Counted from the stretch's first letter, positions 3,268 through 41,716 are shown. The stretch is DNA of 64,000 bases from an uncultured Candidatus Saccharibacteria bacterium (GCA_964639185.1 CAZXCN010000003.1:14059-78058), one strand, 5' to 3'. Numbers and translations: made by a program. Notes: generated from the sequence alone by a model not told the origin.

Positions 3268-4758
3268 TTAGAATCCAGTATAAGAACGCAAGCGTGATAG
3301 TAGACTATTTTCTTTTAGGTAAGCATTAATATACTTTTTAGCCATACTTGTTTTTACATTATCGATCCACTTGCTGGATGGATTAGACTTTTTATTTACT
3401 ACTATTTCCACGATGTCATTATTGTGAAGTTTAGTGAATAGTGTGGTCATCTTGCTATTTATCTTTGCGCTTTGGGCATGATTACCAATATCTGAGTGTA
3501 TTGCATAAGCAAAGTCGATAACTGTTGAGTCTTCTGGTAGATCTACGACATCACCTTTTGGTGTTAGGACGAATATTCTATCTTTAAAAAGATCCATCTT
3601 TAGATGCTCTAAGAACTTTTCAGGATTTATCTTCTTTTCCTCCAATCCCTTCAATTCTTCTAGCCATTCAAGATTCTTTGAGCTAGGAGTGTTGTCATCA
3701 GTAGAAGCTTTTTTATTTCTTCTATTACTTTCTTCTTTATATATAAAATGTGCTGCAACACCATAGGCAGCTTCAGCATGCATTTCTGTGGTGCGTATTT
3801 GGATCTCGACTATACCACCATTACCTGTAAAGATTGTAGTGTGTAGACTTCGATAACCATTTGGCTTTGGCATGGCTATATAGTCTTTTATGCGCCCTGG
3901 CATTGGTCGCCACAGCATATGTATGAGCCCAAGTGTTCGATAACAATCCTCGATGTCTTTTACTATTACTCGTATGGCAACAATATCATATATTTTATCG
4001 ATATCCATTTCATAGCGCTTTAATTTCTGCCATAGACTATATTTATGTTTCTCTCGTTCATCTATCTCAATGAATTTTATATTATTCTTTTCCAATTCTT
4101 CTTTTAAGGTTTCTGATACTATCTCTAACTCTTCATTGTTTGAAGTAGACTTTTCTTTTAAAAGATCTTCAACTTTTGCATAATCTTCTGGAAATACATA
4201 AGGGAAAGCTGCGTCTTCAAGAGCACCTTTTAACTTACCCATACCGATACGATCAGCAAGGCGGGCATGTATTTGGATAGTTTCGAGTGCTATGCGATAA
4301 CGTTTGTCTTCGCGTACGTGTTGGAGTGTTCGGACATTGTGTAGTCTGTCTGCAAGCTTGATAATCAATACTCGCAAATCTTCGGCCACAGCCATGAAGA
4401 ATTTACGTAGACTTTCAACATGACGTTCTGCTCCACGGTATTTTAATTTACCCAGTTTAGTAACACCTTTTACTAGACGAACTATTTCTTCACCAAACTT
4501 TTTTTGCATCTCTTCTTCGGGGATTTCTGTATCTTCGAGTGTATCGTGTAGTAGGCCTGCTACTATAGTACTAGCATCCATACCTAAGCCCGCCAATATT
4601 TTGGCAGTTTCAAATACATGTATAAAGTAAGGTTCACCACTATTACGCAGTTGACCTTCGTGGGCACTCATAGCAAAATCGTAAGCTTTCTGTATCAAGA
4701 CTTTGTCAGCCTTGTTTAGCTTGTGAGCTTGTTCAAATATTTCATTGATATCTGGCAT
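3268..4758 (-). CDS. rel: RelA/SpoT-homolog (p)ppGpp synthetase/hydrolase, short form (HD + synthetase + TGS, no ACT/ZFD C-terminus)
   Basis: HD motif HVFETAKILAGLGMDASTIVAGLLHDTLEDT. Synthetase motif GRIKDYIAMPKPNGYRSLHTTI. TGS-like VLTPKGDVVDLPEDSTVIDFAYAIHSDIG at the C-terminus. Only 496 aa. Confidence 0.85.
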   Translation of the reverse strand: MPDINEIFEQAHKLNKADKVLIQKAYDFAMSAHEGQLRNSGEPYFIHVFETAKILAGLGMDASTIVAGLLHDTLEDTEIPEEEMQKKFGEEIVRLVKGVTKLGKLKYRGAERHVESLRKFFMAVAEDLRVLIIKLADRLHNVRTLQHVREDKRYRIALETIQIHARLADRIGMGKLKGALEDAAFPYVFPEDYAKVEDLLKEKSTSNNEELEIVSETLKEELEKNNIKFIEIDEREKHKYSLWQKLKRYEMDIDKIYDIVAIRVIVKDIEDCYRTLGLIHMLWRPMPGRIKDYIAMPKPNGYRSLHTTIFTGNGGIVEIQIRTTEMHAEAAYGVAAHFIYKEESNRRNKKASTDDNTPSSKNLEWLEELKGLEEKKINPEKFLEHLKMDLFKDRIFVLTPKGDVVDLPEDSTVIDFAYAIHSDIGNHAQSAKINSKMTTLFTKLHNNDIVEIVVNKKSNPSSKWIDNVKTSMAKKYINAYLKENSLLSRLRSYTGF

Positions 4759-4797
4759 ATATTAAGTATACATCATTGATAAAATATCGGAAATAAA

Positions 4798-7074: not shown

Positions 7075-7126
7075 CAGTATTACACGAAAGTAAATATTTT
7101 TGCAAATTTTGATATAAAAATATTTT

Positions 7127-8008
7127 TTATATCCTTTTTATTTCCCCGTATTCTTCTTTTATTAAATCTTTGATTTCCATTATTGAAAGTAGGGCGCCGG
7201 CGCGGGAGGTATCCATACCACTTGCACGGATCAATTCATCGCGCTCCATCGGCTCGATGAGTAGATTTATTATTATCATTTCGTCTTTTCCGCAGTCGGC
7301 GTATTTTTGTTTGTCGGTCTGCATGGGCTTTTCTATATCAAATCCAAGTGCATCGAGTAATTCGTCAGTATTGGTAATAGGTGTGGCGCCTTGGCGAATG
7401 AGGTTATTAGTACCTTTGGAATTTGGTGACAATGCCGACCCAGGCACTACTAATACATCGCGATTGTAATCCACTGCCATGCGTGCAGTAATTAATGTGC
7501 CAGATTTTTCCTGAGCTTCGATTATTAATACAGCACGAGATATCCCAGCCATTAATCGGTTGCGTTGGGGGAATGAATATAGTTGCGACTTTTCATCTGG
7601 TAACATTTCAGATATTAGGCATCCACCTGCATCTACTATTTCTTGGGCAAGTTTTATATTGGACCGTGGGTATAAAGCATTGTTGTCGAGCCCCGACCCA
7701 GGCATAGAAAGGGTAATGAGTCCTGCACGTAATGCAGCACGGTGGGCTATAGTGTCGATACCAAGTGCCAAGCCCGATACTATTACAACAGGGTAGCCTT
7801 TTAATCCAGCGATTAATTTCTCGCATATTTCTTTACCATACGAGGTAAAGTTGCGTGAGCCAACAACGGCTAGATACACATAATCTTGCGGAGGTAATTC
7901 ACCCCTACGGAAAAGTTGTTTAGGAGGTTGTGGAATCTCGAGTAGTGGCTTTGGAAACTCTTCAATTTTTAGTTTGACGATATCTTCCATATTATTTACG
8001 TTTCGCAA
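7127..8008 (-). CDS. dprA: DNA processing protein DprA (Smf)
   Basis: Rossmann-like DprA core: YLAVVGSRNFTSYGKE, VIVSGLALGIDTIAHRAAL and LIIEAQEKSGTLITARMA. Confidence 0.85.
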   Translation of the reverse strand: MRNVNNMEDIVKLKIEEFPKPLLEIPQPPKQLFRRGELPPQDYVYLAVVGSRNFTSYGKEICEKLIAGLKGYPVVIVSGLALGIDTIAHRAALRAGLITLSMPGSGLDNNALYPRSNIKLAQEIVDAGGCLISEMLPDEKSQLYSFPQRNRLMAGISRAVLIIEAQEKSGTLITARMAVDYNRDVLVVPGSALSPNSKGTNNLIRQGATPITNTDELLDALGFDIEKPMQTDKQKYADCGKDEMIIINLLIEPMERDELIRASGMDTSRAGALLSIMEIKDLIKEEYGEIKRI

Positions 8009-8140: not shown

Positions 8141-9448
8141 ATGTTAGACATTAAATTCATCAGGGAAAATACCGATATAGTAAAAGCAGGCATAAAGAAT
8201 AAAAATTCAGATATAGATATTGATTTATTGATAAAACTTGACGATAGGCGTCTGGCTGTATTAAAGATGACCGAGGATCTACGTGCCGAGCAGAATAGGA
8301 TGAATGCTTCTATTTCAATAGAAAAAGATTCTTCAAAAAGGGAACAGATGATAGAGGAAATGCGTTTGGTAAAAGACGATTTTAAAAAAGGGGAAGAAGA
8401 GCTTCGTGAGGTGATGTCACAATGGCAAGGATTAATGTTGAAAATACCAAATATCCCATCTGTAGATACACCTGTGGCTCCTGATGAGAGTGGTAATATG
8501 GTTATAAGGCAATGGGGAGAAAAGCCACAATTTAATTTTACACCAAAGGAGCATTTTGAAATTGGTAAAAAATTAGGCTTGATAGATACTGAAACAGCAG
8601 CCGAAGTAGCATCCTCACGATTTTCATATTTAAAAGGTGATCTTGTTATGATGCAATTTGCACTCATTCAAATGTGTTTAGGTATTTTAACTAATAAGGA
8701 AACATTACAAAAAATTGCTGATGAAGCTGGTATATCTATTAGCGTAGACAGCTTTATGCCTGTGATACCACCAGTATTTATTCGCCCGATAGTTCAGGTA
8801 AAGATGGCGCGCATGATGGCACCAGAGGATCATTATATGTTTCCTGATGATGATTTGATGCTTATTGGTAGTGCCGAACACACACTTGGTTCTATGCATA
8901 TGAATAAAATATTTGAAGAAAATGAATTGCCAATACGTTATGCTGGATACTCTACAGCTTTTAGACGTGAGGCTGGTACTGCTGGCAAGGATACAAATGG
9001 AATATTACGTCAGCATCAATTCGATAAATTAGAGATGGAAGTTTTTTCATTACCAGAGAATTCTATCCAGGAGCACAATTTCCTAGTAGCTATTCAGGAG
9101 CATGTTTTGAAAACTTTAAATCTACCTTATCAAGTTGTGTCTGTTTGTACTGGTGATATGGGCTTTCCTGACACAAGGCAAATAGATATTGAAACTTGGA
9201 TGCCAGGCCAAAATATATATAGGGAAACTCATAGTGCTGATGCAACTGGTGGATTCCAAGCTCGTAGATTAAATACTCGTGTACGTCGTGCCGATGGTAG
9301 GATCGAGCCCGTACATATGACCGATGCTACTGTTGTAGCTATTGGCCGAACTTTGATAGGTATAATCGAGAATTATCAGCAAGAAGATGGCAGTATTCGT
9401 GTACCGGAAGCTTTGCAAAAATATTTAGGTAAAGATTTTATTAAATAA
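8141..9448 (+). CDS. serS: Seryl-tRNA synthetase
   Basis: N-terminus MLDIKFIREN with a coiled-coil arm. Class II motifs FRREAGTAGKDTNGILRQHQFDKLE and GRTLIGIIENYQ at the C-terminus. Confidence 0.9.
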   Translation: MLDIKFIRENTDIVKAGIKNKNSDIDIDLLIKLDDRRLAVLKMTEDLRAEQNRMNASISIEKDSSKREQMIEEMRLVKDDFKKGEEELREVMSQWQGLMLKIPNIPSVDTPVAPDESGNMVIRQWGEKPQFNFTPKEHFEIGKKLGLIDTETAAEVASSRFSYLKGDLVMMQFALIQMCLGILTNKETLQKIADEAGISISVDSFMPVIPPVFIRPIVQVKMARMMAPEDHYMFPDDDLMLIGSAEHTLGSMHMNKIFEENELPIRYAGYSTAFRREAGTAGKDTNGILRQHQFDKLEMEVFSLPENSIQEHNFLVAIQEHVLKTLNLPYQVVSVCTGDMGFPDTRQIDIETWMPGQNIYRETHSADATGGFQARRLNTRVRRADGRIEPVHMTDATVVAIGRTLIGIIENYQQEDGSIRVPEALQKYLGKDFIK

Positions 9449-16663: not shown

Positions 16664-18015
16664 TGTATATTTTTAAAGTGATTGATTACAAAAAATATTT
16701 CAAAGGTAAGAAGATAACCATCATGGGGTTGGGGGTTCTTGGGCGTGGACTTGGCTATACCAAGTTCTTGGCAGAATGCGGCGCTGAATTGATAGTGACA
16801 GATATGAAGACAAAGGAACAATTGGCAAGTTCTATAAAAGAACTTAAAAAATATAAAAATATTGAATGGGTATTAGGTGAACATAGAATGCAGGATTTCA
16901 AGAACGTAGACATGGTTATAAAGAATCCGGGGATTCCTGCTGGCTCTATTTATATAAAAGAAGCTCGCAAGAATAAGATCCCTGTAGAGATGGATGCATC
17001 GCTTTTTGCAAAGCTTGCACCCGAGGTAACACTCGTAGGTGTGACAGGTACTAGGGGCAAGACTATGACTACGATGCTAATATACGAAATACTTAAGAGT
17101 GCAAAAAAGCGAGTTTTTTTGGGTGGTAATATTCGTGGTATTGCAACACTGCCACTACTTGCAAAAGTGAAGAAGGGTGACTTGGTGGTGATGGAGCTCG
17201 ACTCTTGGCAATGTGCTGGATTCGGTGAAGCCAAAATTTCCCCACATATTGCTGTATTCACTACATTTATGCGTGACCATATGAACTATTACGCTGGTAG
17301 TATGAAGAAATATTTTGTAGACAAGGCCAATATCTTTAAATATCAAAAGAAGGGTGACATGCTAATAATACGACCCGAGATGAAGAAGCTAATTCCAAAA
17401 GGTGCAGCTTGTAAATTAGTGGTGGCTAATAGCAAGAACGTTGCCGATGTGGATTTCACAATTCCTGGAACTCACCAACTTGCAAACTTGGCTTGTGCTG
17501 TTGAGGCAGTGAAAGCTTTGGGTGTATCAGATACAATAATCAAGAAAGCCGTGAAAAATTTCAAAGGAGTAGAAGGGCGTCTTCAATATATGAAGACTGT
17601 AAAAGGGGTAAAGATCTACAACGATAACAATGCCACAACTCCAGAGGCAACAATGGTGGGTATCGAAGCATTATCTTTCAAAAAGAATATTGTATTGATA
17701 TGTGGTGGTAGTGATAAGAATATAGAAACAAAGTCACTTGTGAATGCAATAAATAAATATACAAAGGCCGTGGTATTGTTGCCTGGAAGTGGAACAGATA
17801 AATTGGTAAGTAGTATGCAGAAAGTAGTGAGTAGTAAGGGAAATACAGAATTAATAAATGCGAAGGATCTGAAAGATGCGGTGGGGAAGGCGGTGAAGAG
17901 TGCAGTGAAGGGGGATACAATATTATTCTCGCCAGCATTTGCATCGTTTGGAATGTTTACGAATGAATATGACCGCAACGACCAATTTGTAAAGATAATA
18001 AAAGGGTTGAAATAA
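16663..18015 (+). CDS. murD: UDP-N-acetylmuramoylalanine--D-glutamate ligase MurD
   Basis: N-terminal Rossmann KKITIMGLGVLGRGLGYTKFLAECGAELIVTD. P-loop GVTGTRGKTMTTMLIYEIL. Confidence 0.85.
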   Translation: MYIFKVIDYKKYFKGKKITIMGLGVLGRGLGYTKFLAECGAELIVTDMKTKEQLASSIKELKKYKNIEWVLGEHRMQDFKNVDMVIKNPGIPAGSIYIKEARKNKIPVEMDASLFAKLAPEVTLVGVTGTRGKTMTTMLIYEILKSAKKRVFLGGNIRGIATLPLLAKVKKGDLVVMELDSWQCAGFGEAKISPHIAVFTTFMRDHMNYYAGSMKKYFVDKANIFKYQKKGDMLIIRPEMKKLIPKGAACKLVVANSKNVADVDFTIPGTHQLANLACAVEAVKALGVSDTIIKKAVKNFKGVEGRLQYMKTVKGVKIYNDNNATTPEATMVGIEALSFKKNIVLICGGSDKNIETKSLVNAINKYTKAVVLLPGSGTDKLVSSMQKVVSSKGNTELINAKDLKDAVGKAVKSAVKGDTILFSPAFASFGMFTNEYDRNDQFVKIIKGLK

Positions 18016-18019
18016 ATAT

Positions 18020-18598
18020 ATGCTTCCGGAATATTTAAATTTTTTAACACCTATCGTTGCTATTATTGCTAGCTATTTATATATAAAAAGTATAGTAAAA
18101 GGCGACACAATTCCCAACAAGGTTGGATGGTTTATTTGGTTATTAGCACCACTAGTTTCGTCCTTTATAATTTTGCAAAATGGTGGAGGATTTTCTGCTA
18201 TACCGGTTTTTATGTCTTGGATTATTCCACTTATTGTCCTGATTGCATCATACAAGATTAAAACAAAAATAAAAATAAATAAGTTAGATATTGTATGTTT
18301 TATAAGTGCACTCATTGCTATGTATTTTTGGCTCATTGCTAAAAATATTTATAATGCAACTGTATTTGCAATAATTGCAGATGGGTTCGGTTTTATACCA
18401 ACTATTTATAAAACTATAAAAAACCCAGGAACCGAAAAACCTTGGCCGTATATCGCTGGAATTTTTAATGCGAGCATTGCTATCCTAACACTGCATAATT
18501 TTGCATTTCATTTATTTGCTTTCCCTTTTTATTTATTGATTGGTAATGTTATATTGATTAGTGTGATATATTTTACTAATTTTAAGAGAGTTGAATAA
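18020..18598 (+). CDS. Hypothetical integral membrane protein (5-6 TM)
   Basis: Hydrophobic helices throughout; no recognisable family. It occupies the slot where ftsW would follow murD in a canonical dcw cluster. Confidence 0.5.
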   Translation: MLPEYLNFLTPIVAIIASYLYIKSIVKGDTIPNKVGWFIWLLAPLVSSFIILQNGGGFSAIPVFMSWIIPLIVLIASYKIKTKIKINKLDIVCFISALIAMYFWLIAKNIYNATVFAIIADGFGFIPTIYKTIKNPGTEKPWPYIAGIFNASIAILTLHNFAFHLFAFPFYLLIGNVILISVIYFTNFKRVE

Positions 18599-19184
18599 CA
18601 TGGAAGATAAAATATTAAAATTTAAAGATATTGTAATAAAAAACTTCTCCAGAGAAGATTTTCAATATCATGAATGGATGGGGGAATATCATCTTGAAAT
18701 TGTAGAGAGGATTGCAATGGAACTTTGTGATTTTTATACAGTAGCAGATAGAAACATCGTGCAAGCAATGGTGTGGTTCCATGATTTCGGTAAACCTTTT
18801 AATGAAGAAAGAGAAAGAGAAATAACTCTTGAAAAAGGGCCGGAAGCCATGCTTAATTGTGGATTTTCAAAGGATTTCATTGATAAGGTTATTGAGTATT
18901 GGAAGTTAATGGAATCGAAAAATGAAATAGATATAAAAGATACACCGATAGAAGTACAAATAGTGTCTTCATCAGATGGAGCTTCGCATTTTGTAGGGGT
19001 TTTCTACCCTAGTTATTTTGGAGATGGTAATGATTTTAAGAATACACAAAAAAATCTTCAAAAAAAGATTGAACAAGATTGGAATAGAAAAATGGTTTTA
19101 CCTGAGATACGTAACGCTTTTGAAGGTAGATACAAAAAGGCTAAAGAATTATTAGGAGAATTTCCAGATAATTTTTTAAAATAA
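18591..19184 (+). CDS. HD-domain protein (putative metal-dependent phosphohydrolase)
   Basis: H...H...HD pattern: YHEWMGEYHLEIVERIAMEL ... VWFHDFGKP. Confidence 0.5.
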   Translation: MNNMEDKILKFKDIVIKNFSREDFQYHEWMGEYHLEIVERIAMELCDFYTVADRNIVQAMVWFHDFGKPFNEEREREITLEKGPEAMLNCGFSKDFIDKVIEYWKLMESKNEIDIKDTPIEVQIVSSSDGASHFVGVFYPSYFGDGNDFKNTQKNLQKKIEQDWNRKMVLPEIRNAFEGRYKKAKELLGEFPDNFLK

Positions 19185-19188
19185 TAAT

Positions 19189-19719
19189 ATGAAAATATAT
19201 ATAATAAGACATGGGCAGACAGAATTTAATAAGGCTGGGTTGATTAATGGGAATATTGATTCTGATCTAACTGAAACTGGTATAGAGCAAGCAAAACTTG
19301 CGGCTGATTTTATACCAAAAACTATAAAGCGTATGTATGTATCTTCGCTTGGTAGGGCAAAAAAGACAGCTGAAATTTTAAATGAATATTTAAATGCTTC
19401 ATTAAGTTTTCATGATGAATTAAAAGAAGTACACTTTGGTAAATTGGAAGGTACACCTTTTTTGGAAGAATATAAGAAGAGACACAGAATGCTAGATTAT
19501 GATTGGGGTTCATATGGAGGTGAAGATTTTAATAAAGTTAAATCTAGAGTTTTAAAAGTTTTGGAAAAAATTAAAGAGGAAAATGAGGATGGCGAGGCTC
19601 TAATTGTTGCCCACGGTGGTATTATTAGGTTAATGCACTTCCTTGAATTTGGAGATGAATTAAAGGAAATAGAAAATACCTCTTTACATAGCTTTGATTT
19701 AGATAAAATTTTAAAATAA
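19189..19719 (+). CDS. Histidine phosphatase family protein (phosphoglycerate mutase-like)
   Basis: MKIYIIRHGQTEFN (RHG catalytic motif) and the C-terminal AHGG. Confidence 0.75.
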   Translation: MKIYIIRHGQTEFNKAGLINGNIDSDLTETGIEQAKLAADFIPKTIKRMYVSSLGRAKKTAEILNEYLNASLSFHDELKEVHFGKLEGTPFLEEYKKRHRMLDYDWGSYGGEDFNKVKSRVLKVLEKIKEENEDGEALIVAHGGIIRLMHFLEFGDELKEIENTSLHSFDLDKILK

Positions 19720-19720
19720 T

Positions 19721-20335
19721 ATGAAAAAGAAAACTCAAATATTAATGGTCCATGGTGGAATGACTTTCAGGAATAGAAAGGATTATTTATCTTGGCTAAA
19801 AGATAGGTCAATAACTTTTGGCGCAAAGAAGCGTTGGACTACTGATTATATGGATGAAAAACTAGGAAAGGATTTTGAAATTATAAGGCCACGAATGCCT
19901 CTACCGGAAAATGCTATGTATGAGGACTGGAAAATTCATTTTGAGAAATTTATACCTTATTTAAAGAATAATGTTATTCTGATTGGCGGTTCACTTGGTG
20001 GAATATTCCTTGCAAAATATCTATCAGAGAATAAGTTTCCAAAGAAAATACTTTCTACATATCTTGTTTGCCCACCCTTTGATGATACATGCTTTACCGA
20101 GGATTTGGTTGGGGGTTTTAAATTAAAATCAAACCTATCACTCTTGGAGCAAAATTCTAAAAATCTTACACTAATGTTCTCAGAAGATGATGACGATGTT
20201 CCAGTAGATCATGCTGAAAAATACAGAGCCAAGTTGCCGAATGCAAAGATTATCATATACAAGAGCAAAAATGGCCATTTTGATGTATCAACATTCCCAG
20301 AAATAGTAAAAATGATTAAAGAAGATATTAAATAA
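19721..20335 (+). CDS. Alpha/beta hydrolase (YdeN/RBBP9-like serine hydrolase)
   Basis: ILMVHGG, a nucleophile elbow LIGGSLGG and about 200 aa in size. Confidence 0.45.
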   Translation: MKKKTQILMVHGGMTFRNRKDYLSWLKDRSITFGAKKRWTTDYMDEKLGKDFEIIRPRMPLPENAMYEDWKIHFEKFIPYLKNNVILIGGSLGGIFLAKYLSENKFPKKILSTYLVCPPFDDTCFTEDLVGGFKLKSNLSLLEQNSKNLTLMFSEDDDDVPVDHAEKYRAKLPNAKIIIYKSKNGHFDVSTFPEIVKMIKEDIK

Positions 20336-20336
20336 T

Positions 20337-20963
20337 ATGAAAATAATCTTAGCATCAGATACTAGTTTTTTAATTAAATACGGATATAAATTAACCAATA
20401 TTCCAAAAGATGAAATAAATATTGGTTATATTTATACTGCTTCGAAAGGTGCAAGAGATCAACAATTTTTTATGGATGTTGAAAATGAAATTAAAAATGC
20501 TGGATTTAATTTTACTAAATACGATATAGAAGGAAAATCTTGTAAGGAGATTGAAGATTTTTTTAGTGATAAAAATATAATTCAGGTTGATGGTGGAAAT
20601 ACCTTTTATCTTTTAAATTCCATTAGAAATAGTGGGTTTTATGAATTTTTAAAAAATGAATTAAATAAAGGTAAAATATTTATTGGTACAAGTGCTGGTG
20701 CTTATGTAATGTGTCCAACAATTGAAGTAGCAGACTGGAACCCAAATGGTAAAAGCAGATTTGGAATTACAGATTTTACTGCGCTTAATTATGTACCTTT
20801 TGTATTAAAAGTACATTATAAAGATGATCAAGAAGAAAGAATTAAAGAAAAAATGAAATCATTAAAATACCAGCTGAGAATATTACGTGATGGACAAGGT
20901 ATAATAGTAGAAGATGGAATTTATAAATTTGTCGGTGATGGTGAAGAGGTAATTTTAAAATAA
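20337..20963 (+). CDS. Peptidase S51 (dipeptidase E)-like / class I glutamine amidotransferase-like protein
   Basis: IQVDGGNTFYLLN and IGTSAGAYV match the S51 family Ser/His region. Confidence 0.55.
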   Translation: MKIILASDTSFLIKYGYKLTNIPKDEINIGYIYTASKGARDQQFFMDVENEIKNAGFNFTKYDIEGKSCKEIEDFFSDKNIIQVDGGNTFYLLNSIRNSGFYEFLKNELNKGKIFIGTSAGAYVMCPTIEVADWNPNGKSRFGITDFTALNYVPFVLKVHYKDDQEERIKEKMKSLKYQLRILRDGQGIIVEDGIYKFVGDGEEVILK

Positions 20964-20964
20964 T

Positions 20965-22293
20965 ATGGACTTAGATTTAAATAAAATTAAAAATATACAC
21001 TTTATCGGGATCGGGGGGATTGGGATCTCGGCTATTGCGCGTATGATGTTGGCGGATGGCAAGAGTGTTAATGGTCAGGACATGCAGGATTCCGATATAA
21101 TTGCGGATCTTATGAGCGCTGGGGCTGATATAACAATAGGGCAGAAATATGAGGATATTCCAAAGGGGACCGAGCTTGTGGTCTACACAATTGCTATCGA
21201 GTACTATGATCCGGAATTATTTAAAAAGTTACAAGAGCAAAATGACTTTGCTATTCGCTCATACCCACAGATGCTACACCTAGTGACTGATCATAAATAC
21301 ACTATTGCTGTGGCAGGAACTCATGGCAAGACCACAACCACAGCCATGATAGGCTATGCATTGCGTGGGATAGGCAAGGACCCAAGTATGATAGTGGGGA
21401 GTTTAATTCAAGACCCTTCGAATACCTCAGGGCAGGCACGTACTAATTACTGGGCGGGCAAGAGTGACTTGTTCGTAGTAGAGGCGTGCGAATATCGCCG
21501 TTCATTTTTAAATATCAAACCCAACATTCTTGTTATTACAAATATTGATGCAGATCATCTTGATTATTATAAAGACATTGCTGACATACAGAGCGCTTTT
21601 CATGAATTGGTTATGAGTGTGCCTGAAAATGGATATATTATATGTAATCCAAATGATGATAAAGTGGCAAGTGTTCTAGTAGATATTACTGCGCAGATTA
21701 TTGACTATACAAAATTATTTGATAACAATTTAAAATTACAAATCCCTGGGCTTCATAATAAATACAATGCGGCTTGTGCACTGGCTGTGATAGAAGCTCT
21801 AAAATTTAATAAGGATGAGGCGGTAAATATATTGGCAGACTTCCCTGGGACTTGGAGACGTTTCGAATACAAGGGGTTACTATCAAGCGGTACGAAAGTC
21901 TACGATGATTATGCCCACCACCCAACCGAGGTAAAGGCAAGCCTCCAAGGATTCCGTGAATTGTATCCATCAAGTAGTGGATATAAAGTTACAGTAGTTT
22001 TCCAGCCACATTTGTTCAGTAGAACTAAATCATTGCTCGACGAATTTGCACACAGCTTCGCTGAAGCTGACAATGTATTGATATTGCCTATATACTATGC
22101 ACGCGAGGAGGATGACGGCACAGTTAGTGCCCACACACTTGCCGAAGCTATCGGTGGTGGTGCATTAGGATACGATGATTTTCAGGAAGCTGAAAAATAT
22201 ATTCAAAATATGAATCTGAGTGATAAAGATATTATAGTTACCATGGGTGCAGGTGAAGCATTTAAAGTGGGTGATACTTTGCTTGGTAAATAA
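20965..22293 (+). CDS. murC: UDP-N-acetylmuramate--L-alanine ligase MurC
   Basis: IHFIGIGGIGISAIA is the MurC N-terminal motif. The P-loop is AVAGTHGKTTTTAMI and DDYAHHP lies in the C-terminal domain. Confidence 0.85.
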   Translation: MDLDLNKIKNIHFIGIGGIGISAIARMMLADGKSVNGQDMQDSDIIADLMSAGADITIGQKYEDIPKGTELVVYTIAIEYYDPELFKKLQEQNDFAIRSYPQMLHLVTDHKYTIAVAGTHGKTTTTAMIGYALRGIGKDPSMIVGSLIQDPSNTSGQARTNYWAGKSDLFVVEACEYRRSFLNIKPNILVITNIDADHLDYYKDIADIQSAFHELVMSVPENGYIICNPNDDKVASVLVDITAQIIDYTKLFDNNLKLQIPGLHNKYNAACALAVIEALKFNKDEAVNILADFPGTWRRFEYKGLLSSGTKVYDDYAHHPTEVKASLQGFRELYPSSSGYKVTVVFQPHLFSRTKSLLDEFAHSFAEADNVLILPIYYAREEDDGTVSAHTLAEAIGGGALGYDDFQEAEKYIQNMNLSDKDIIVTMGAGEAFKVGDTLLGK

Positions 22294-32349: not shown

Positions 32350-32412
32350 TATTGTAAAATTCTTCATTTGTTAAATTCATAATCATGTGGTATATTAATA
32401 AAAAAATATATT

Positions 32413-32817
32413 ATGGCATATAGATTAAAAGAATTAAAAATCGAGTCTTCTAAGTACAAGTTAGAAGCTAATGATGAAGAAAAAAAAGCCTTAAATCAAA
32501 TAGGGATGTGCGAAAAGAATAAAAATAAACCGCATATTATCTCTAATCATTATTGGGTAAGAGAAAAAGACGCTATGTGTAATTGTTTAAATTGTGACCT
32601 CTCCTTTTTAAAAGGTCATCTCTATTTAATACCACAAGGTGTGATTTTAATTGAAGAAGAAAATAGGAGAAAATTTATTAAGAAAAAGACTAGTCCTGAG
32701 CTTAATTCTAATTCTAATTCTGAGACTAAAATTAATTCTAATTCTAATTCTAATTCTAATTTTAATTCTGAGATTAAGGTTAAACCTTATTTTAAAATGC
32801 ACTTTGGCTCAAATTAA
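32413..32817 (+). CDS. Hypothetical protein with a Cys cluster (CNCLNCD) and a Ser/Asn-rich low-complexity tail
   Basis: ORF with NSNSNSETKINSNSNSNSNFNSE encoded by the hexamer repeat. No homology recognised. Confidence 0.35.
   Translation: MAYRLKELKIESSKYKLEANDEEKKALNQIGMCEKNKNKPHIISNHYWVREKDAMCNCLNCDLSFLKGHLYLIPQGVILIEEENRRKFIKKKTSPELNSNSNSETKINSNSNSNSNFNSEIKVKPYFKMHFGSN
32704..32770 (+). repeat. Tandem hexamer repeat (AATTCT)n, two runs, inside the ORF
   Basis: aattctaattctaattct ... aattctaattctaattctaattct. Confidence 0.8.
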
Positions 32818-32837: not shown

Positions 32838-32868
32838 AAAACAGCGAATGAAAATTTGCTGTTTTTTT
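32838..32868 (+). terminator. Rho-independent terminator
   Basis: aaacagcgaatgaaaatttgctgttttttt. Confidence 0.6.
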
Positions 32869-32870
32869 AT

Positions 32871-33077
32871 GGGGGGCCTACAGGGAACATGAGTACATTT
32901 ATCGCCGACTACATCGGCAGGTACTTTTCCGGTCGTAAACGACACGGAAAAGTCTTTCGATTCTCTGACGCTAGCAAAGCAGTTTGCTCGCTTAGGGTCA
33001 CGCAATAAAAAAGGCCCGACAAAGTCGAGCTCTTTTTTATACGCGTGAGGGTTTAACAGATAGAACCCCCCCCAAGG
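32871..33077 (+). repeat. GC-rich repeat element E1. It starts with a direct repeat of the tRNA-Glu 3' end (cctacagggaa, 32877..32887), followed by a conserved arm (gagtac ... gtctttcgattct) and a tail (agggtt...ccccccccaagg)
   Basis: Shares cctacagggaac, gagtac and gtctttcgattct in the same order and orientation with the element at 36537..36640 and with the 3' end of tRNA-Glu at 36700..36715. Much higher GC than the flanks. Confidence 0.7.
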
Positions 33078-33119
33078 TTCATTGCCCAGTAAGGCTTTTT
33101 TATATGTTCATAATATATA

Positions 33120-33584
33120 CTATTTAACTTTCTCGTGCATAGCTTGTTTCTCTTTTTGTTTTGCAACTTCAAGCAAATATTTTAATCCTTCATTGGAATT
33201 AAATTTATTTTGTATCTCTAATTTGAAATATCGAAAAATCATTACAACGAATGTAGTGAAAAAAAGTATGATAAAAATATTATATAAATAACCATGTGGT
33301 ACGTTTCTGTCTATTATATTAGCAACGAGGTTTCCTGAAATACCCAGTATTATTCCTAGAAATAAAAGCCAATATGATTCTCTCTTTTCTTCGATTTCTT
33401 TAACAACAGTTTCGAATTTTGTAATTTCTTTTTGTAAAGTATCAGTCATATTTTTGATAAAGACATCTTTGTCTTTATCAGGAATAGCATTCCATGTAGA
33501 AATACCCACTGTTTCAATTATTTTTTCTCTAATTTGATATTCTCGTTTTACGCTGTTTTCCATGATTAAAGTATTATAATACAA
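33120..33584 (-). CDS. Hypothetical protein, 154 aa: soluble N-terminal domain plus 2 C-terminal TM helices (island cargo)
   Basis: ORF with TMs LLFLGIILGISGNLVANII and LYNIFIILFFTTFVVMIF. Divergent from the 930-aa ORF. No homology recognised. Confidence 0.5.
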   Translation of the reverse strand: MYYNTLIMENSVKREYQIREKIIETVGISTWNAIPDKDKDVFIKNMTDTLQKEITKFETVVKEIEEKRESYWLLFLGIILGISGNLVANIIDRNVPHGYLYNIFIILFFTTFVVMIFRYFKLEIQNKFNSNEGLKYLLEVAKQKEKQAMHEKVK

Positions 33585-33676
33585 AAAGTGACAAAAGTGA
33601 CATTATTTTAAATAATAAGAAAATTACTCTCAAAAGTGTCTGATTTACCTGTCAAATAGGATCTAAAAATGCTAAA

Positions 33677-36469
33677 ATGGCTATTATGTGGCATAAATAT
33701 TTATACATAATACAAAATCCAGATCCTCAGACGTGTCTCGCAGGTCTCGTTTGTGCCAATGATACTTTTATTGCCATATACGGGGTCATATTCACTATTG
33801 TAATTTCCTTGGGTGTATATATTTATGGTCTACAAAACAGAGAAGAGAAAATAACCCTACTTAAAAGTACAGATATTAAAGGTATCATAGAAAACTCTCT
33901 TGGTTTTTTTGCATTTACTTTTTTTGCATTACCCAACCCCGTCTATGAAATTTTTAACTTTATATTTTTAGGATGGATTCTTCTGAGACTGCTAGGTGCT
34001 TTTAAGGAAGTCTTTAAATTTAATGAGAGCGAATTGTCGGGAGAAAGAGCTGTGAAGAAGTTCAAGGAAGGTGTGATTCGTGAGAAGCTTATCCAATTTG
34101 AGGATTTAAAGAAAAAGAATGAGTTACTGAATGAAGAACTTGAGAAGAAAAGGGGTGAGGAAATAGAAAGATTCCTCTTCAGTGAAAACAATGAGTCTTA
34201 TCACCTTATTCGCGCTCAAAGTTCCGGGTATATTACAGATATTGATCTCAATATCTTATTTGCGAATGAAGACAGTAAAGATTCTTTGGGAAATTATTCA
34301 TACTATATTCCGTATCACATTTCACACGGTGCTCCAATAGATTTCGATACAGTGATTCTCGGTGTAAAAAAAGATGGAGATAAGAAAATCGATGAAGACA
34401 GAGAAGACAGACTGCGGTCTTTCATATCTGTCAGTGATGAATATGAAAATCCGACCTCTTACATTGAAGCCGAAACAAGGAATTATTACCCACAAATGAT
34501 CTCCTTGATAAAGCTTGAAGATTCAAAAAGTCTTGAATTGAAACTTAAAGAATTTTCTAGCTTCGTTGATCATTTCACAAACAAGTCAGATTCGTACGTA
34601 GATATTATCCAATTTATTAATGATGATATTATCTTTACCTTGCAAAAATACGCATTCAAGCAAGGAAACGTTGATTGTATAAGAAAGGTGGTGTCGTTCT
34701 CTCTCGGATATATTTATCAGGCGTTAGACAAGAAATCAACGAAGACATTTAATATCTTTTTTAGAAACTTCGGGCATGCCTATTATGAAGCGTTCAGTCT
34801 CAATAAAAAAGAAAGGGATGAATTCTTTGATATTTATTTCAGATGGCTTAACGAAGTTGCTAAGTATTCATTAAAATCCAGAATCAAAAAGGATGATGAT
34901 TATTCGGAGTTTGTTACTACTTTTCTATCTGGAGTTAACGGATGGTTAAAAATTGCTTTTGACCGCAAAGACATTGATGTTTTCGAGAAAACACTGTCAT
35001 TCTTAAATAACTCTCTTTCCCGTGAGACGTATGAGCACGATAAGGATGATGCACTTGATGAGGCTGTTCTCACCAAGAAAGCTGTACTGTTTGGTTTTAC
35101 TGCGTGGGTGTATAAATATTTTCCGGCAAGAAAGGGCGATGACTTTTACCGCAATGCACTGTCCAAACTACTGTCAGCCTTGGCTAAGGATCCAATCCGT
35201 CACTACGCAAACAATCAAGATGATTTGAATTATTATTTGAGTATTTACTTAAAGAGTGCGGAACTCTCAGAAAGCAAGGGTTCTTTTGGATGGGATAGTT
35301 GGGATATGCCCGAGGGAACAGTTTCTACGGTTACAATACGTCATGATATTAAGAATCTGCTAACAGATCGTATTCTTAATATTGTATTAGCTAACCCCAC
35401 TCTAGCCGTTGATATAAAAGATAAAAATTATAACGACGAACTTTCTCTTGTAAAACAAGGCAACCAGCAGTTCGATGTTCTTCTAAATAAGACCAAAGAC
35501 TTTTTTGTCTCTACGGAAAAACTAACAGATGAACAATTTGATACCGCAAAAACTAAATTTTATGAAGTCTTCTCAAAGATCGCTGAAAAATACGAATCCG
35601 ATGTTAGGAGTAAGCTTATTCAGCAGTCAATTGATGATGAAAAATTTAATGAATTTGCAAAACAGAATTTTGAGTCATATAAAAAGTCGCGAGTTTTGTA
35701 CGGTATTCAAAAGTTTATAAAAGATAGTACAAAGAGGAGCGATGGTTTTGGATATAACACCCTCTTATCCAAAGAACAGTTTGTTAAAGAGACCAATGTT
35801 CACTATTCAAACGGAGACCAGTTTGGTGAAGATCTTGCTAGGTCAGAAGACAACAAGATTCTTGAATCCATCTACAAGAAAGTAGAAAAGACCCCTCTTA
35901 TTAGTAGAGAAAATATTGGTAAGAACATATATCCCGAGAGTGATACAACAGCCATCATCTTGTGGCTAAACGGCTACTTGAGTATCGAATCATATTCTCC
36001 TAACGATTTTGTTCCTTATTGGCAGGAAGTAGATTCCAGAAAAGATAAAGGTCCCTATTATCAAGGAACTATTAAGGGTGTTCCCGTGTATATCATTTAT
36101 AAGTTCCAAGATCAGAAGTCATATCCAGACTCCATGTTTATTTTTAAATCGGGGTCATTCTCTGCTCATGAATTTGAAATAGAGAAGGATACTGAGTTAG
36201 ATGAGGCAAACACAAAATGGTCAAACGATGAAGAAAGTTGTTTAACTTTATCCATAACTAACCTCTCAAGTCTTGATGAGGCTCGTAAAAAGATAGTTGA
36301 AAATTGGATCAAGAATGATCCTGATAGCGTAAAAGATAAAGACGCAAAAATTGAAGAGATTAAAACAGATGTGATCTTTAAATTCTATAAAGGACTGGGA
36401 GTTGAAGATTTAGTTATTGATGGTAAAAAAATTAAGATTTTCCGCATTAAGAGAAGTTGGATTAAGTAA
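33677..36469 (+). CDS. Large hypothetical protein, 930 aa: three N-terminal TM helices, a coiled-coil segment, then an ~800-aa cytoplasmic region with no recognisable motifs (island cargo)
   Basis: Long uninterrupted ORF. TMs at about residues 20-50, 65-85 and 90-110; coiled coil LIQFEDLKKKNELLNEELEKKRGEEIERF. No Walker A, integrase or nuclease signatures seen. Confidence 0.6.
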   Translation: MAIMWHKYLYIIQNPDPQTCLAGLVCANDTFIAIYGVIFTIVISLGVYIYGLQNREEKITLLKSTDIKGIIENSLGFFAFTFFALPNPVYEIFNFIFLGWILLRLLGAFKEVFKFNESELSGERAVKKFKEGVIREKLIQFEDLKKKNELLNEELEKKRGEEIERFLFSENNESYHLIRAQSSGYITDIDLNILFANEDSKDSLGNYSYYIPYHISHGAPIDFDTVILGVKKDGDKKIDEDREDRLRSFISVSDEYENPTSYIEAETRNYYPQMISLIKLEDSKSLELKLKEFSSFVDHFTNKSDSYVDIIQFINDDIIFTLQKYAFKQGNVDCIRKVVSFSLGYIYQALDKKSTKTFNIFFRNFGHAYYEAFSLNKKERDEFFDIYFRWLNEVAKYSLKSRIKKDDDYSEFVTTFLSGVNGWLKIAFDRKDIDVFEKTLSFLNNSLSRETYEHDKDDALDEAVLTKKAVLFGFTAWVYKYFPARKGDDFYRNALSKLLSALAKDPIRHYANNQDDLNYYLSIYLKSAELSESKGSFGWDSWDMPEGTVSTVTIRHDIKNLLTDRILNIVLANPTLAVDIKDKNYNDELSLVKQGNQQFDVLLNKTKDFFVSTEKLTDEQFDTAKTKFYEVFSKIAEKYESDVRSKLIQQSIDDEKFNEFAKQNFESYKKSRVLYGIQKFIKDSTKRSDGFGYNTLLSKEQFVKETNVHYSNGDQFGEDLARSEDNKILESIYKKVEKTPLISRENIGKNIYPESDTTAIILWLNGYLSIESYSPNDFVPYWQEVDSRKDKGPYYQGTIKGVPVYIIYKFQDQKSYPDSMFIFKSGSFSAHEFEIEKDTELDEANTKWSNDEESCLTLSITNLSSLDEARKKIVENWIKNDPDSVKDKDAKIEEIKTDVIFKFYKGLGVEDLVIDGKKIKIFRIKRSWIK

Positions 36470-36476
36470 GTTCACA

Positions 36477-36512
36477 GGTACCAAAATAGCCCTTTAAGGG
36501 CTATTTTGGTAC
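36477..36512 (+). terminator. Perfect 16-bp stem hairpin immediately after the 930-aa ORF (no T-run)
   Basis: ggtaccaaaatagccc-ttta-agggctattttggtac. Confidence 0.45.
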
Positions 36513-36536
36513 GCTTCTCGTGCCGCGCTCTTGAAG

Positions 36537-36700
36537 GTGACCCTACAGGGAACCGCGAGTACGCTTTCGGTCACGAGTCTTTTCTTGGTAGAAAAGCTCG
36601 CGACCCCGACTCGGCTCGACAGCCTCCGTCTTTCGATTCTTTTTAAACATAGATTTAGCTATGTTTAAAAATCACAAAATTTGTCCTGCGGAAAATTTTG
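36537..36700 (+). repeat. GC-rich repeat element E2. It has a 16-nt exact direct repeat of the tRNA-Glu 3' end (gtgaccctacagggaa, 36537..36552), a conserved arm (gagtac ... gtctttcgattct to 36640) and further hairpins up to the tRNA
   Basis: gtgaccctacagggaa is identical to 36700..36715. The arm is homologous to E1. It contains the palindromes aaacatagatttagctatgttt and cacaaaattt...aaattttgtg. Confidence 0.7.
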
Positions 36701-36772
36701 TGACCCTACAGGGAATCGAACCCTGATTCCATCCTTGAGAAGGATGTGTCCTAACCGTTAGACGATAGGGCC
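36701..36772 (-). tRNA. tRNA-Glu (anticodon CUC)
   Basis: The reverse complement reads GGCCCUAUCGUCUAACGGUUAGGACACAUCCUUCUCAAGGAUGGAAUCAGGGUUCGAUUCCCUGUAGGGUCA. The anticodon loop is UUCUCAA and the T-loop UUCGAUU. Confidence 0.85.
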
Positions 36773-36838
36773 ATATGAGATTTAAAATACCACATTTTGT
36801 ATATTTTTCAAAGTTGAATAGAAGTATATTTTGCCGAT

Positions 36839-36868
36839 TTGACTCATTTGCACTCAAATGGTATTCTG
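36839..36868 (+). promoter_or_regulatory. Putative promoter for prs (TTGACT-17-TATTCT), overlapping the palindrome GCACTCA...TGAGTGC
   Basis: ttgactcatttgcactcaaatggtattctgagtgc. Confidence 0.3.
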
Positions 36869-39889: not shown

Positions 39890-41716
39890 ATGAACAAAAG
39901 ATCCTTATTGCTCAAAAATTCTAGTGTAGAGATTAACAACACTGAAAAATTTGGATTGCTTCAATTTTTGCAATCCATCACTAACTCCATTCCCATGCCA
40001 CGTCTTTGGTTGCCTAATAATGATTACGATTATATGGGTTCCTTTCAGATCAAAGAAAAAATCGAAAAAAATGGCTTAAATTTTTTATCAAACATTGAAA
40101 TAGACTACGTAACTCTCTTGCAAAGACAAGAATTTATTAAATGGTTCTTTGGTAACAAGGAATTCATTAACTTCCTTTTGACTACAACTGTGCCGGTAAA
40201 AAAAAGTAGCGGTAATCGTTACTCTGATGTTACCGATGTTTTGGCAATGCGTCGTTATCTGTCGAATCTTTTAAAGTATCTAGAGGAACATCCTTATAGT
40301 GCTTCTTTTGCAAAAAAAGTGAAAAAAGAGTTATCTGATTTCAGGCAGATTGATTCCTTGGTAAGCTCATGTCACTCAATTACACTACAGGGAGTATGTT
40401 CTTTTACTCCAGAAAATCATTCCAGGAAATTTTTTCTTAATACGAAAAATTTGGAGTTAAAATTGGTTGGAAAAAATAAAAAGTACATACTAACTATTAT
40501 TGACTTTTTAGAGGGAAATGTTGATTCTATGAAATGTTGTTTAGAACAAAAAGGTGGAGATTCAAAAATGCCATATGATATTTGCGAAGCGATTTTTTAT
40601 GCAATTTTTACTTTATATAATGATGATATTAAAAAAATATCAGAAAATAAGAAGGGTAACGTGCATATAAAGCTTGAATTTTCAGACATTCAATTAAGAA
40701 GTGTGCAATGTATGTTGTCAGTACAAGGATTCGGTAAAAAGCATGTATTGTATCCTGTGAAAGTCGATCCGACGAGTAACAGTTACGAAACTGTTGAATT
40801 CCATGTTCTGCCAGAAAATGATTCTATTACAAAACACAGAATACTCACTAAAGTTTTACCTATTCAAAAATTGATGGATCTTCCTGGAAAAGAATCAGCA
40901 GGCTTATCAAACGGGTTCATTAATAAAATGACGAATACGGTAAGTGAATTTTTTCGACAATCTGATTCTTTTAAGGAATTGATTTTTTTGGCCAGCATTG
41001 CTCACTACTATCATAAATCTGGTAAAGTTTTTGTTTTCCCTAAAATTCTTCCAAAAGAAGAAATGAAGCTGAAATCAATAGCAAGTATCAATCCTTTGTT
41101 TATTGATGCAAAAAAATCGGTGCCAAATAATGTAATGTTGAATAGAAAGATATTGGCGAATGTGATTTATGGTGCAAATACTGGAGGAAAGACAGGTTAT
41201 GTAAATATGTTTATTTTAAATCAAATTTTGACTCAAACAGGATTACCTATTTTTGCCAAAAATGCCGAAATTTCCATGAAGGACAATATTCTCCTTCATT
41301 ATCCTGAAGGTGCAGAAATAAGCCCAAATGAATCAAGGTTTGATGCTGAGCTATCTCGATTGGAAACGCTATTAAAGCAGTCTACTAAATATAGCCTCAT
41401 AGTATTTGATGAAGCTTTTACAGGGACAGAGGCAGAAGTCGGTTCTTCTCAGTTGCAGGATGTGATTTTTGTGTTGAAGACATTGGGATGCCATTTTATG
41501 GTAACTACTCATTTTCATGGATTAATTGATTTCATTGATAAAATGGAATCTTTAGAAAATAAACATTTTAAATTGCCCAATCCTAACGGCGTCAAAAAAT
41601 TTAATTATAAAATCCAACCTAATGGATCAACTCAATCTTTTGGCCTTGATGTTATTCGTAGAAAAAAATTAGATCTTGAGTCAATGTTGAAATTAGTAGA
41701 AAAGAAAACTACTTAA
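39890..41716 (+). CDS. MutS-family ATPase (domain V only) with a ~400-aa N-terminal region of unknown homology; no mismatch-binding or Smr domain
   Basis: C-terminal ABC/MutS ATPase: Walker A GANTGGKTGYVNM, MutS signature SRFDAELSRLETLL, Walker B SLIVFDEAFTGTE and TTHFHGL (the ATHYHEL equivalent). The N-terminal 400 aa are unrecognised. Confidence 0.6.
   Translation: MNKRSLLLKNSSVEINNTEKFGLLQFLQSITNSIPMPRLWLPNNDYDYMGSFQIKEKIEKNGLNFLSNIEIDYVTLLQRQEFIKWFFGNKEFINFLLTTTVPVKKSSGNRYSDVTDVLAMRRYLSNLLKYLEEHPYSASFAKKVKKELSDFRQIDSLVSSCHSITLQGVCSFTPENHSRKFFLNTKNLELKLVGKNKKYILTIIDFLEGNVDSMKCCLEQKGGDSKMPYDICEAIFYAIFTLYNDDIKKISENKKGNVHIKLEFSDIQLRSVQCMLSVQGFGKKHVLYPVKVDPTSNSYETVEFHVLPENDSITKHRILTKVLPIQKLMDLPGKESAGLSNGFINKMTNTVSEFFRQSDSFKELIFLASIAHYYHKSGKVFVFPKILPKEEMKLKSIASINPLFIDAKKSVPNNVMLNRKILANVIYGANTGGKTGYVNMFILNQILTQTGLPIFAKNAEISMKDNILLHYPEGAEISPNESRFDAELSRLETLLKQSTKYSLIVFDEAFTGTEAEVGSSQLQDVIFVLKTLGCHFMVTTHFHGLIDFIDKMESLENKHFKLPNPNGVKKFNYKIQPNGSTQSFGLDVIRRKKLDLESMLKLVEKKTT

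Follow-up and report, generated by a model that had tools for sequence, protein, structure and literature searches.

The interval between the murF stop codon (~32350) and the tRNA-Glu(CTC) gene ending at 36772, in a 64,000-nucleotide stretch of the genome of an uncultured Candidatus Saccharibacteria bacterium (GCA_964639185.1 CAZXCN010000003.1:14059-78058; the whole stretch is referred to as the window, and positions are counted from its first letter), is probably a recombination hotspot that has accreted insertions flanked by attachment (att) sequences and devoid of an integrase, in the manner of cis-mobilizable elements (CIMEs). The interval carries direct repeats of the tRNA 3' end, homologous GC-rich arms beside two of them, and cargo genes whose DNA identity to distant genomes is at the level of horizontal transfer; its content varies in every relative examined, and homology to one of these relatives breaks off inside a repeat. 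An earlier reading of the window (hereafter the original prediction) had described a tRNA-Glu-associated island with a two-gene cargo, and the integration hotspot with att-type scars that it placed at the tRNA 3' end is borne out by the variability of the slot, by that breakpoint, and by a relative that is an empty site for one of the insertions. What we revise is the internal structure of the island, and we propose a type of recombinase likely to have built it.

Direct repeats of the tRNA-Glu 3' end

The intact tRNA-Glu(CTC) gene occupies 36700..36772 on the minus strand (ARAGORN; Rfam tRNA 61.5 bits). Positions 36537 and 36700 carry one and the same 16-mer, GTGACCCTACAGGGAA, and the 11-mer CCTACAGGGAA has three exact occurrences in the window (32877, 36542 and 36705), all in one orientation. 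Allowing one mismatch adds a single match to CCTACAGGGAA, at 31738 on the opposite strand, and none of 100 dinucleotide-preserving shuffles gave at least 4 matches (mean 0.59). Read on the tRNA strand, the common block is TTCCCTGTAGGGTCAC, which covers the final two T-loop nucleotides, the 3' strands of the T-stem and of the acceptor stem, the discriminator and one base more. The original prediction had reported three same-orientation copies of the tRNA-Glu 3' end, two of them an exact 16-nt pair, with the island on the 3' side of a minus-strand tRNA; we find the same, the variable DNA lying on the 3' side of tRNA-Glu(CTC) and the tRNA itself being left intact.

The island deviates from the rest of the window in composition, a comparison that had been proposed at the outset. 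Its tetranucleotide distance (z = 3.2) is exceeded in just 5 of 304 windows of 3.4 kb, four of which overlap the island, and its GC content has a z of -1.7 within a genome of 36% GC. Homologues, by the names of their sources, place this genome in the Patescibacteria (Paceibacterota-like). Elsewhere in the window, 17600-21400 is the sole other stretch with an island-like tetranucleotide deviation, and it has the window's lowest GC (0.31).

The tRNA-Glu slot in related genomes

We compared the slot, defined as the DNA from murF to PRPP synthase, across six related Patescibacteria lineages. Its content is variable in every relative examined, and takes in a Gabija system, a large serine recombinase element, a 1-kb helix-turn-helix (HTH) cargo and a flipped tRNA gene. 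The tRNA lies on the plus strand in L011, L028 and L093 and on the minus strand in the window, L030 and L025.

L011, whose core genes share 71-77% DNA identity with those of the window, is collinear with it up to the murF stop codon and again from the PRPP synthase promoter. Between these points, murF is immediately followed by a tRNA-Glu of opposite orientation, and the island genes of the window are all missing. A large serine recombinase (Resolvase, Recombinase and Zn_ribbon_recom domains) abuts the tRNA-Glu end; the original prediction had suggested looking for an integrase in related islands. The slot of L011 also contains perfect 115-nt and 291-nt inverted repeats, a LOOT RNA, and DUF6119 and DUF3750 proteins. 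Within L011 3771-9391, the recombinase gene lies between the perfect 115-nt inverted repeats and a 3.3-kb cargo between the perfect 291-nt ones; three junctions have TCAC, the tRNA end, in common, and such an arrangement could reflect either an invertible system or an assembly artefact caused by inversion within the population. The LOOT RNA (Rfam RF03000, 88.9 bits) is at 5806-5931, in the island beside tRNA-Glu.

In the closest relative, L028/L029 (MurF 87% identical), and in L093/L094, tRNA-Glu follows murF on the plus strand and the contigs stop inside the tRNA. In L030 (MurF 82%), read on the plus strand, the murF stop codon is followed by a terminator block, a degenerate tRNA-end fragment, a 1-kb cargo consisting of an HTH protein and a 193-aa open reading frame (ORF), and a minus-strand tRNA-Glu. 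The independent metagenome contigs of these five relatives (L028, L029, L093, L094 and L030) end inside or just after tRNA-Glu, as is expected where content varies within a population.

The slot of L025, a genome with core genes 66-71% identical to those of the window, reads in the direction of the tRNA as follows: the tRNA, a hairpin block that we call block H, a complete Gabija system (4448-7228; GajA 2.8e-165, GajB 1.5e-117), two small ORFs, a homologue of the 154-aa protein encoded in the island, and a unit at 9084-9264 (tRNA 3' fragment, spacer, arm and partial core) that is 83.5% identical to window 36724-36544. Window 36481-36555, comprising copy 2 of the repeat and the hairpin block, is 92% identical to L025 4311-4383; block H is also found in L008. 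Because the tRNA of L025 runs straight into block H, with which it is in direct contact, this genome represents an empty site for the 147-bp proximal insert of the window. The empty site originally envisaged, with tRNA-Glu abutting the gene at 32413..32817, was not found among the relatives; the idea holds for the 147-bp insert.

In L008-L010, a 947-aa homologue of the 930-aa protein of the island adjoins tRNA-Glu, and the left neighbours are unrelated. L008 shares 92.8% DNA identity with window 34403-36543, compared with 70.8% for rmuC, and this homology breaks off at 36543, inside copy 2; the L008 sequence at the position of the arm is unrelated. The module with the 154-aa gene (33058-33594) has 93.5% DNA identity to L025, compared with 66-71% for core genes. 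Since the identity of the cargo DNA to distant genomes (92.8-93.5%) is far above that of the core (66-71%), we attribute the cargo to horizontal transfer. The presence-or-absence variation that had been anticipated for the island is thus found in L011, L025, L030 and L008, which all differ in slot content.

A similar arrangement is present at another tRNA gene. In L002 (22285-22479), the 3' end of tRNA-Arg(GCG) is repeated directly, over 14 nt, at a distance of ~106 nt downstream. This copy is preceded by the 23-nt string TACTGTTCCTGTAAGGAAAGATT, which recurs after the arm in the tRNA-Glu slot of L025 (9264-9288); neither the window nor viral contigs contain the string.

Hairpin arms beside the repeats

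The two repeat copies outside the tRNA (copies 2 and 3) are each preceded, in the direction of the tRNA, by a homologous GC-rich hairpin segment, in agreement with the original prediction; we term these segments arm P (proximal) and arm D (distal). Each opens with GAATCGAAAGAC, the reverse complement of a T-loop, which is found only at 32952-32963 and 36628-36639, and each ends in a small hairpin directly upstream of the repeat copy, with GTACTC as its loop region. This UACU-loop hairpin precedes copy 2, copy 3 and the copy in L025. The unit as a whole, made up of a tRNA end or its remnant, a hairpin, the arm and the core, is present three times, as the proximal and distal units of the window and in L025 (alignment A3; covariance model R1). 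The model gives arm P a score of 128 bits and arm D 72.7 bits, and it identifies no further arm copies in 19 related loci, L011 included.

The arms fold significantly better than shuffled sequences, and the tRNA strand folds better than its complement: z-scores are -3.27 for arm P on the tRNA strand versus -2.09 on the other strand, -3.98 for arm D, and -3.06 for the L025 arm on the tRNA strand versus -0.13 on its complement. Between the window and L025, hairpin a changes from GGCU/AGCC to GUGC/GCAC, with three of four pairs altered on both sides, and its closing stem changes from GAC/GUC to GCC/GGC, one pair on both sides, while the rest of the arm is nearly unchanged. Hairpin c is compensatory between arms P and D, GCG/CGC becoming AUG/CAU. 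The spacer between arm P and the tRNA contains an AT-rich hairpin (36642-36669) and the palindrome TCACAAAATTT / AAATTTTGTGA (36672-36682 / 36693-36703), which takes in the tRNA end with its terminal TCAC.

Judged by sequence, the arms would be compatible with palindromic arm sites for a recombinase or accessory protein, or with a small structured RNA, and these two readings are inseparable because there are only three copies from two genomes. A search of Rfam 15 with the arms returned no match even at E <= 10, the tRNA itself being the only match. Several more specific identities were considered and set aside. The ~200-nt GC-rich distal region has a GGGGGG...CCCCCC closing helix that suggested a tmRNA or another known RNA; ARAGORN reported no tmRNA, and Rfam no match at E <= 10. 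A guide RNA, with an omega-RNA or bridge-RNA scaffold and a guide matching the tRNA, was also discarded: no gene for TnpB, IscB or an IS110-type protein is present, and the product of the large ORF is a membrane protein without any nuclease match. Nor do the arms belong to a dispersed or viral element, for the exact pattern gave no hit in viral contigs, and of the 59 loci returned by a relaxed pattern none fits the covariance model.

Cargo genes and their histories

The larger cargo gene encodes a 930-aa protein; among 1.84 billion representatives, a profile search recovered 98 relatives of it, 14 of them with E < 1e-30. The cargo had originally been described as lacking recognizable domains. 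At the level of sequence families this description stands: the 930-aa, 154-aa and 134-aa ORFs have no match in Pfam, PADLOC or PHROGs, the 930-aa protein has none among PDB sequences, and none of nine scanned relatives scores above a Pfam curated cut-off. At the level of structure it needs amending, as the AlphaFold model of the 930-aa protein (mean predicted local distance difference test score, pLDDT, 85.8; predicted template modelling score, pTM, 0.69) begins with membrane helices and a long helix, includes a small beta domain and an alpha-solenoid of ~400 residues, and closes with a C-terminal alpha/beta domain. A Foldseek comparison with viral models places major capsid proteins on top (probability 1.0, weak E-values), and the modelled C-terminal domain has a probable HK97-like (capsid/encapsulin) fold. 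By Pfam, PHROGs and PDB, the protein has no sequence membership in capsid, Linocin or encapsulin families, and no member of its family was found in viral contigs. An extended -10-like motif at 33669-33678 is so near the ATG of this gene that its mRNA may be leaderless and start from M4.

Gene neighbourhoods link this family to restriction systems and to mobile elements. In L033, L031/L032, L014 and L017, the family member is the third gene after a type III Mod and a Res-like helicase (PADLOC MTase_III 1e-99 and REase_III 2e-16), with few bp between the genes, and the linkage is kept even where the Res proteins share just 34% identity. The operons lie at 719-7421 in L033 and 2488-9312 in L031, where the homologue is split into 555-aa and 167-aa ORFs. 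In L005 and L006, the element that bears the homologue also encodes a serine recombinase, a methyltransferase, and a large and a small terminase, the former a match to PHROG 38 (2.7e-81). A single family of large serine recombinases (58-98% mutual identity) adjoins 930-aa homologues in L002, L005, L006, L020 and L031. The copy in the window is solitary, with no Mod or Res gene in the 64 kb.

These associations lead us to infer that the 930-aa protein acts against phages or helps to maintain the element. The defence reading, like the original suggestion of a defence cargo, is an argument from gene neighbourhood only. A bolder idea, which we consider doubtful, is that the family is a new, always-mobile element or anti-phage protein restricted to Patescibacteria, anchored in the membrane, whose HK97-like domain might engage or mimic capsid subunits or form a capsid-like lattice for the element; separately, the arms could be an undescribed RNA of these elements. 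In a capsid-engaging version, the protein might for example sequester capsid subunits or poison capsid assembly at the membrane.

The small membrane protein of 154 aa has a sole homologue among 5.8 billion clusters searched, the 145-aa P0035 of L025. The junction at 33593/4 joins the 154-aa module, common to L025, to the 930-aa module, common to L008. The original prediction treated the distal 3.65 kb as one element; that view has to be abandoned, as the 930-aa and 154-aa modules have separate histories and a block common to L030 (33004-33049) lies inside. The counterpart of this block in L030 is directly after the murF stop codon. The pentamer GTGAC, two copies of which (33588/33597) sit right at the 33593 junction, was considered as a crossover scar; junctions are enriched in it, yet it is equally readable as -35 boxes, and we retain it only as a weak hint.

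The 134-aa ORF next to murF, which had been taken for the chromosomal flank of the island, is itself variable: it is absent between murF and the tRNA in six relatives (L011, L028, L030, L025, L093 and L095), and the variable segment must therefore begin at the murF stop codon. A 12-nt tandem repeat at 32679-32774 encodes the Asn-Ser runs of this ORF, and an identical Logan contig, L001, begins inside it, at window 32732.

Organization of the segment and its flanks

From the tRNA towards murF, the segment consists of the tRNA, the spacer, arm P, core copy 2, block H, the 930-aa gene (convergent), the 154-aa gene, the fragment at 33045-33073, the terminator block shared with L030, an inverted remnant of the tRNA, arm D, core copy 3, the 134-aa ORF and murF. 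The inverted remnant matches the T-loop and stem of the L011 tRNA-Glu at 12 of 12 positions, a match equalled by none of 500 shuffles, and the arm motif GAATCGAAAGAC is its reverse complement. Coordinates are collected in the table.

Features of the segment between murF and tRNA-Glu(CTC), in window coordinates
Feature	Position	Strand	Description
core copy 1	36700-36715	-	last 16 nt of intact tRNA-Glu(CTC)
spacer of proximal mini-insert	36641..36699	-	homologous to L025 9109-9165
arm P (proximal, GC-rich)	36553..36640	-	GAATCGAAAGAC, hairpin a, 16-bp hairpin b, hairpin c (GCG-UACU-CGC)
core copy 2	36537..36552	-	16/16 direct repeat of the tRNA 3' end
block H	36478..36536	.	perfect 17-bp hairpin (36478-36512) and linker; bidirectional terminator-like flank
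930-aa cargo gene	33677..36469	+	probable start M4 at 33686
module junction	33588..33601	+	reads GTGACaaaaGTGAC; BLAST breakpoints 33594 and 33593
154-aa small membrane protein gene	33120..33584	-	147 aa from ATG at 33563
tentative degenerate tRNA 3' fragment (psi)	33045..33073	-	GGGGTTCTATCTGTTAAACCCTCAC; at the place of the tRNA T-arm/acceptor end in alignment A3
terminator-like hairpin block	33004..33049	.	95.8% identical to L030 6141-6188; terminator scan match
inverted tRNA-Glu 3' remnant	32956..33001	+	TTCGATTCTCTG, 25-nt hairpin, then TAGGGTCAC
arm D (distal, GC-rich)	32888..32963	-	GAATCGAAAGAC, two hairpins, hairpin c (AUG-UACU-CAU)
core copy 3	32877..32887	-	11 nt of the tRNA 3' end
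134-aa ORF	32413..32817	+	Asn-Ser repeat; hairpin 32841-32866 after it

To the left of the slot lie an ftsL-like gene, a penicillin-binding protein gene and murF, and to its right PRPP synthase, a 130-aa ORF and rmuC. Extended -10-like motifs of the form TGNTAT(A/T)NT occur at 32388-32396, 36785-36793 (minus strand), 36858-36867 and 33669-33678, upstream of the 134-aa ORF, tRNA-Glu, PRPP synthase and the 930-aa gene, respectively. Further out, to the right of rmuC, a 608-aa ORF at 39890-41716 contains MutS domain V only; it has no counterpart at that place in L011, where a different 414-aa ORF is found, and is thus another variable gene.

Origin of the island

We propose that integrative elements have repeatedly entered the T-loop-to-3'-end core of the tRNA gene. 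Every insertion would bring a replacement 3' end and push the former 3' end, together with the DNA behind it, outward, which would leave a stack of direct copies. Copy 2, with 16 of 16 positions preserved, would be the youngest, and the fragment at 33045-33073 and the 11-nt copy 3 would be older and degraded. The recombinase genes may have been deleted later or never been carried, leaving as remnants the 147-bp arm-only mini-insert, the 930-aa module with its terminator block, the 154-aa module and an older arm unit. Such remnants would be non-autonomous, movable only by a recombinase acting in trans, that is, cis-mobilizable or CIME-like; the order of events and the present-day immobility of the island are our reconstruction.

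The recombinase was most likely of the large serine type, a class we favour because L011 has such an enzyme on its tRNA end and one such family sits beside 930-aa homologues. The window holds no recombinase according to Pfam searches of the three ORFs and a tblastn search of the 64 kb with two large serine recombinases, which agrees with the original observation that no integrase survives. A tyrosine integrase is not implied: none turned up in the window or in the related loci that we examined, and large serine recombinases are the only integrases seen at the slot or next to 930-aa homologues. The tandem integrations originally described are recognizable as stacked att scars; the segment is more mosaic than two tandem elements and includes inverted remnants.

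Several observations sit uneasily with this scheme. No integrase, excisionase or circular junction was observed, and mobility is therefore something we infer only. Simple stacking accounts neither for the plus-oriented remnant at 32956-33001 nor for the placing of arm D and copy 3 between murF and 33004-33049, a block that abuts murF in L030. Close relatives differ in the orientation of the tRNA, which means that the scheme also needs inversions or recombination between inverted sites. Taken by itself, the fragment at 33045-33073 is not significant, as 54 of 500 shuffles equalled it. A long direct repeat is not what large serine recombinases usually leave behind, although the Dehalococcoides islands provide a precedent for it. 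Finally, the compensatory changes in the arms and their folding strand bias are sequence features that hint at an RNA role, which att arms do not require.

This last point leads to an explanation that we regard as unlikely and that is compatible with an island: the arms together with the tRNA-like 3' segment may be a functional structured RNA, transcribed along with tRNA-Glu or behind it, for example a small RNA derived from the tRNA trailer or a regulatory RNA of the element, with the repeats forming part of the RNA and not recombination scars. The paired changes in hairpin a, its closing stem and hairpin c speak for it, as do the better folding of arm P and the L025 arm on the tRNA strand and the fact that the arms are GC-rich islands within a genome of 36% GC. 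These signals come from three copies in two genomes, with none in 19 related or 59 viral loci, and are unaccompanied by an Rfam family at E <= 10; the sequence of L008 at the same position is unrelated, template switching can give palindromes paired changes without selection, and a structured RNA would not explain why the cargo turns over or why breakpoints fall at the repeats.

An origin without any site-specific recombinase, in which local duplication, gene conversion and homologous recombination produced the repeats and the cargo entered a permissive intergenic region by ordinary illegitimate or homologous recombination, strikes us as decidedly improbable. It would accommodate tRNA fragments that run both ways (32956-33001 on the plus strand; 32877, 33045 and 36537 on the minus strand), the flipping of the tRNA among relatives and a window that has no integrase. 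Yet the repeat starts exactly in the T-loop and stops where the tRNA does, which is the canonical att sublocation, each copy has a conserved hairpin motif ahead of it, and in L011 the end of the tRNA is directly adjoined by a serine recombinase; the parallel tRNA-Arg mini-module in L002, with a 23-nt motif common to L025, moreover points to a common mobile arm sequence. Vertical inheritance of the cargo as core genes, with the repeats as a motif dispersed through the genome, is already contradicted by the data and scarcely credible. The recurrence of a 930-aa homologue beside tRNA-Glu in L008-L010 is what it would lead one to expect, but the exact repeat is confined to three sites in the 64 kb, both genes are missing from L011 and L030, and L008 and L025 each lack one of them, the 930-aa gene being the one absent from L025; the 154-aa protein has one homologue in 5.8 billion clusters, and the cargo DNA is far closer to its homologues than core genes are to theirs. 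Of the outcomes that would have overturned the original proposal, neither a motif dispersed through the 64 kb nor a conserved core gene was encountered. On balance, accretion of att-flanked, integrase-less insertions at tRNA-Glu is the reading that we retain.

Significance and relation to known systems

The mobile elements and defence islands of Patescibacteria, or the candidate phyla radiation (CPR), are poorly charted. In our comparison, relatives swap small cassettes at a common landing site, the tRNA-Glu 3' end, among them Gabija, recombinase elements and a gene associated with type III restriction-modification (R-M), and the position downstream of tRNA-Glu(CTC), beside murF, offers a practical handle for mining CPR accessory genes. 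The island as such is of an ordinary, well-known class and its mechanism is textbook; the remainder of interest is the 930-aa family and the covarying hairpin arms. Accordingly, the value of the locus lies in an uncharacterised protein family with a predicted HK97-like domain and a link to restriction, and in tiny att-only inserts with conserved hairpins.

Sublocation classes of tRNA-linked islands were reportedly distinguished by Williams in 2002. Like classical tyrosine-integrase islands and prophages at tRNA genes, the accretion described here targets the 3' side, has a common block running from the T-loop to the 3' end and leaves the tRNA restored; unlike them, it comes with no tyrosine integrase in the window or the related loci examined. 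The cargo also differs from systems to which it could be compared. The members of the 930-aa family in L033, L031, L014 and L017 follow Mod-Res, as an accessory gene of type III R-M would, whereas the copy in the window does not, and in comparison with HK97 capsid and encapsulin proteins the 930-aa protein adds predicted transmembrane helices and an alpha-solenoid of ~400 aa that capsid proteins lack.

CIMEs, and site-specific accretion at the att sites of integrative and conjugative or integrative and mobilizable elements (ICEs/IMEs), have been reviewed (PMC5704250). As in CIMEs, DNA without recombination or transfer genes is flanked by att sequences and arranged in tandem at one site, with copies 1/2 and 2/3 as flanks; the difference is that no cognate autonomous element with matching att arms was found, the junctions of the serine recombinase at the same tRNA in L011 having only TCAC in common with the window arms.

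The closest documented system is the ssrA islands of Dehalococcoides, tandem islands whose borders are ~20-bp repeats of the 3' end of ssrA, starting from the T-loop (McMurdie et al. 2011, PMC3146451). Each repeat in those islands has a short conserved motif immediately ahead of it, a CcrB-like large serine recombinase serves as integrase, and units without the integration module have been interpreted as cis-mobilizable (PMC3146451). The segment between murF and tRNA-Glu resembles them in its tandem units, in a repeat that starts two nucleotides inside the T-loop, in the motif upstream of the repeats and in its integrase-less units; a large serine recombinase is likewise found at the slot, but in L011 and not in the window. 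It departs from them in its target, which is tRNA-Glu(CTC) and not ssrA, in units that are much smaller (147 bp to ~3 kb), in its inverted remnants and orientation flips, and in the recombinase junctions of L011, which share only TCAC with the tRNA end.

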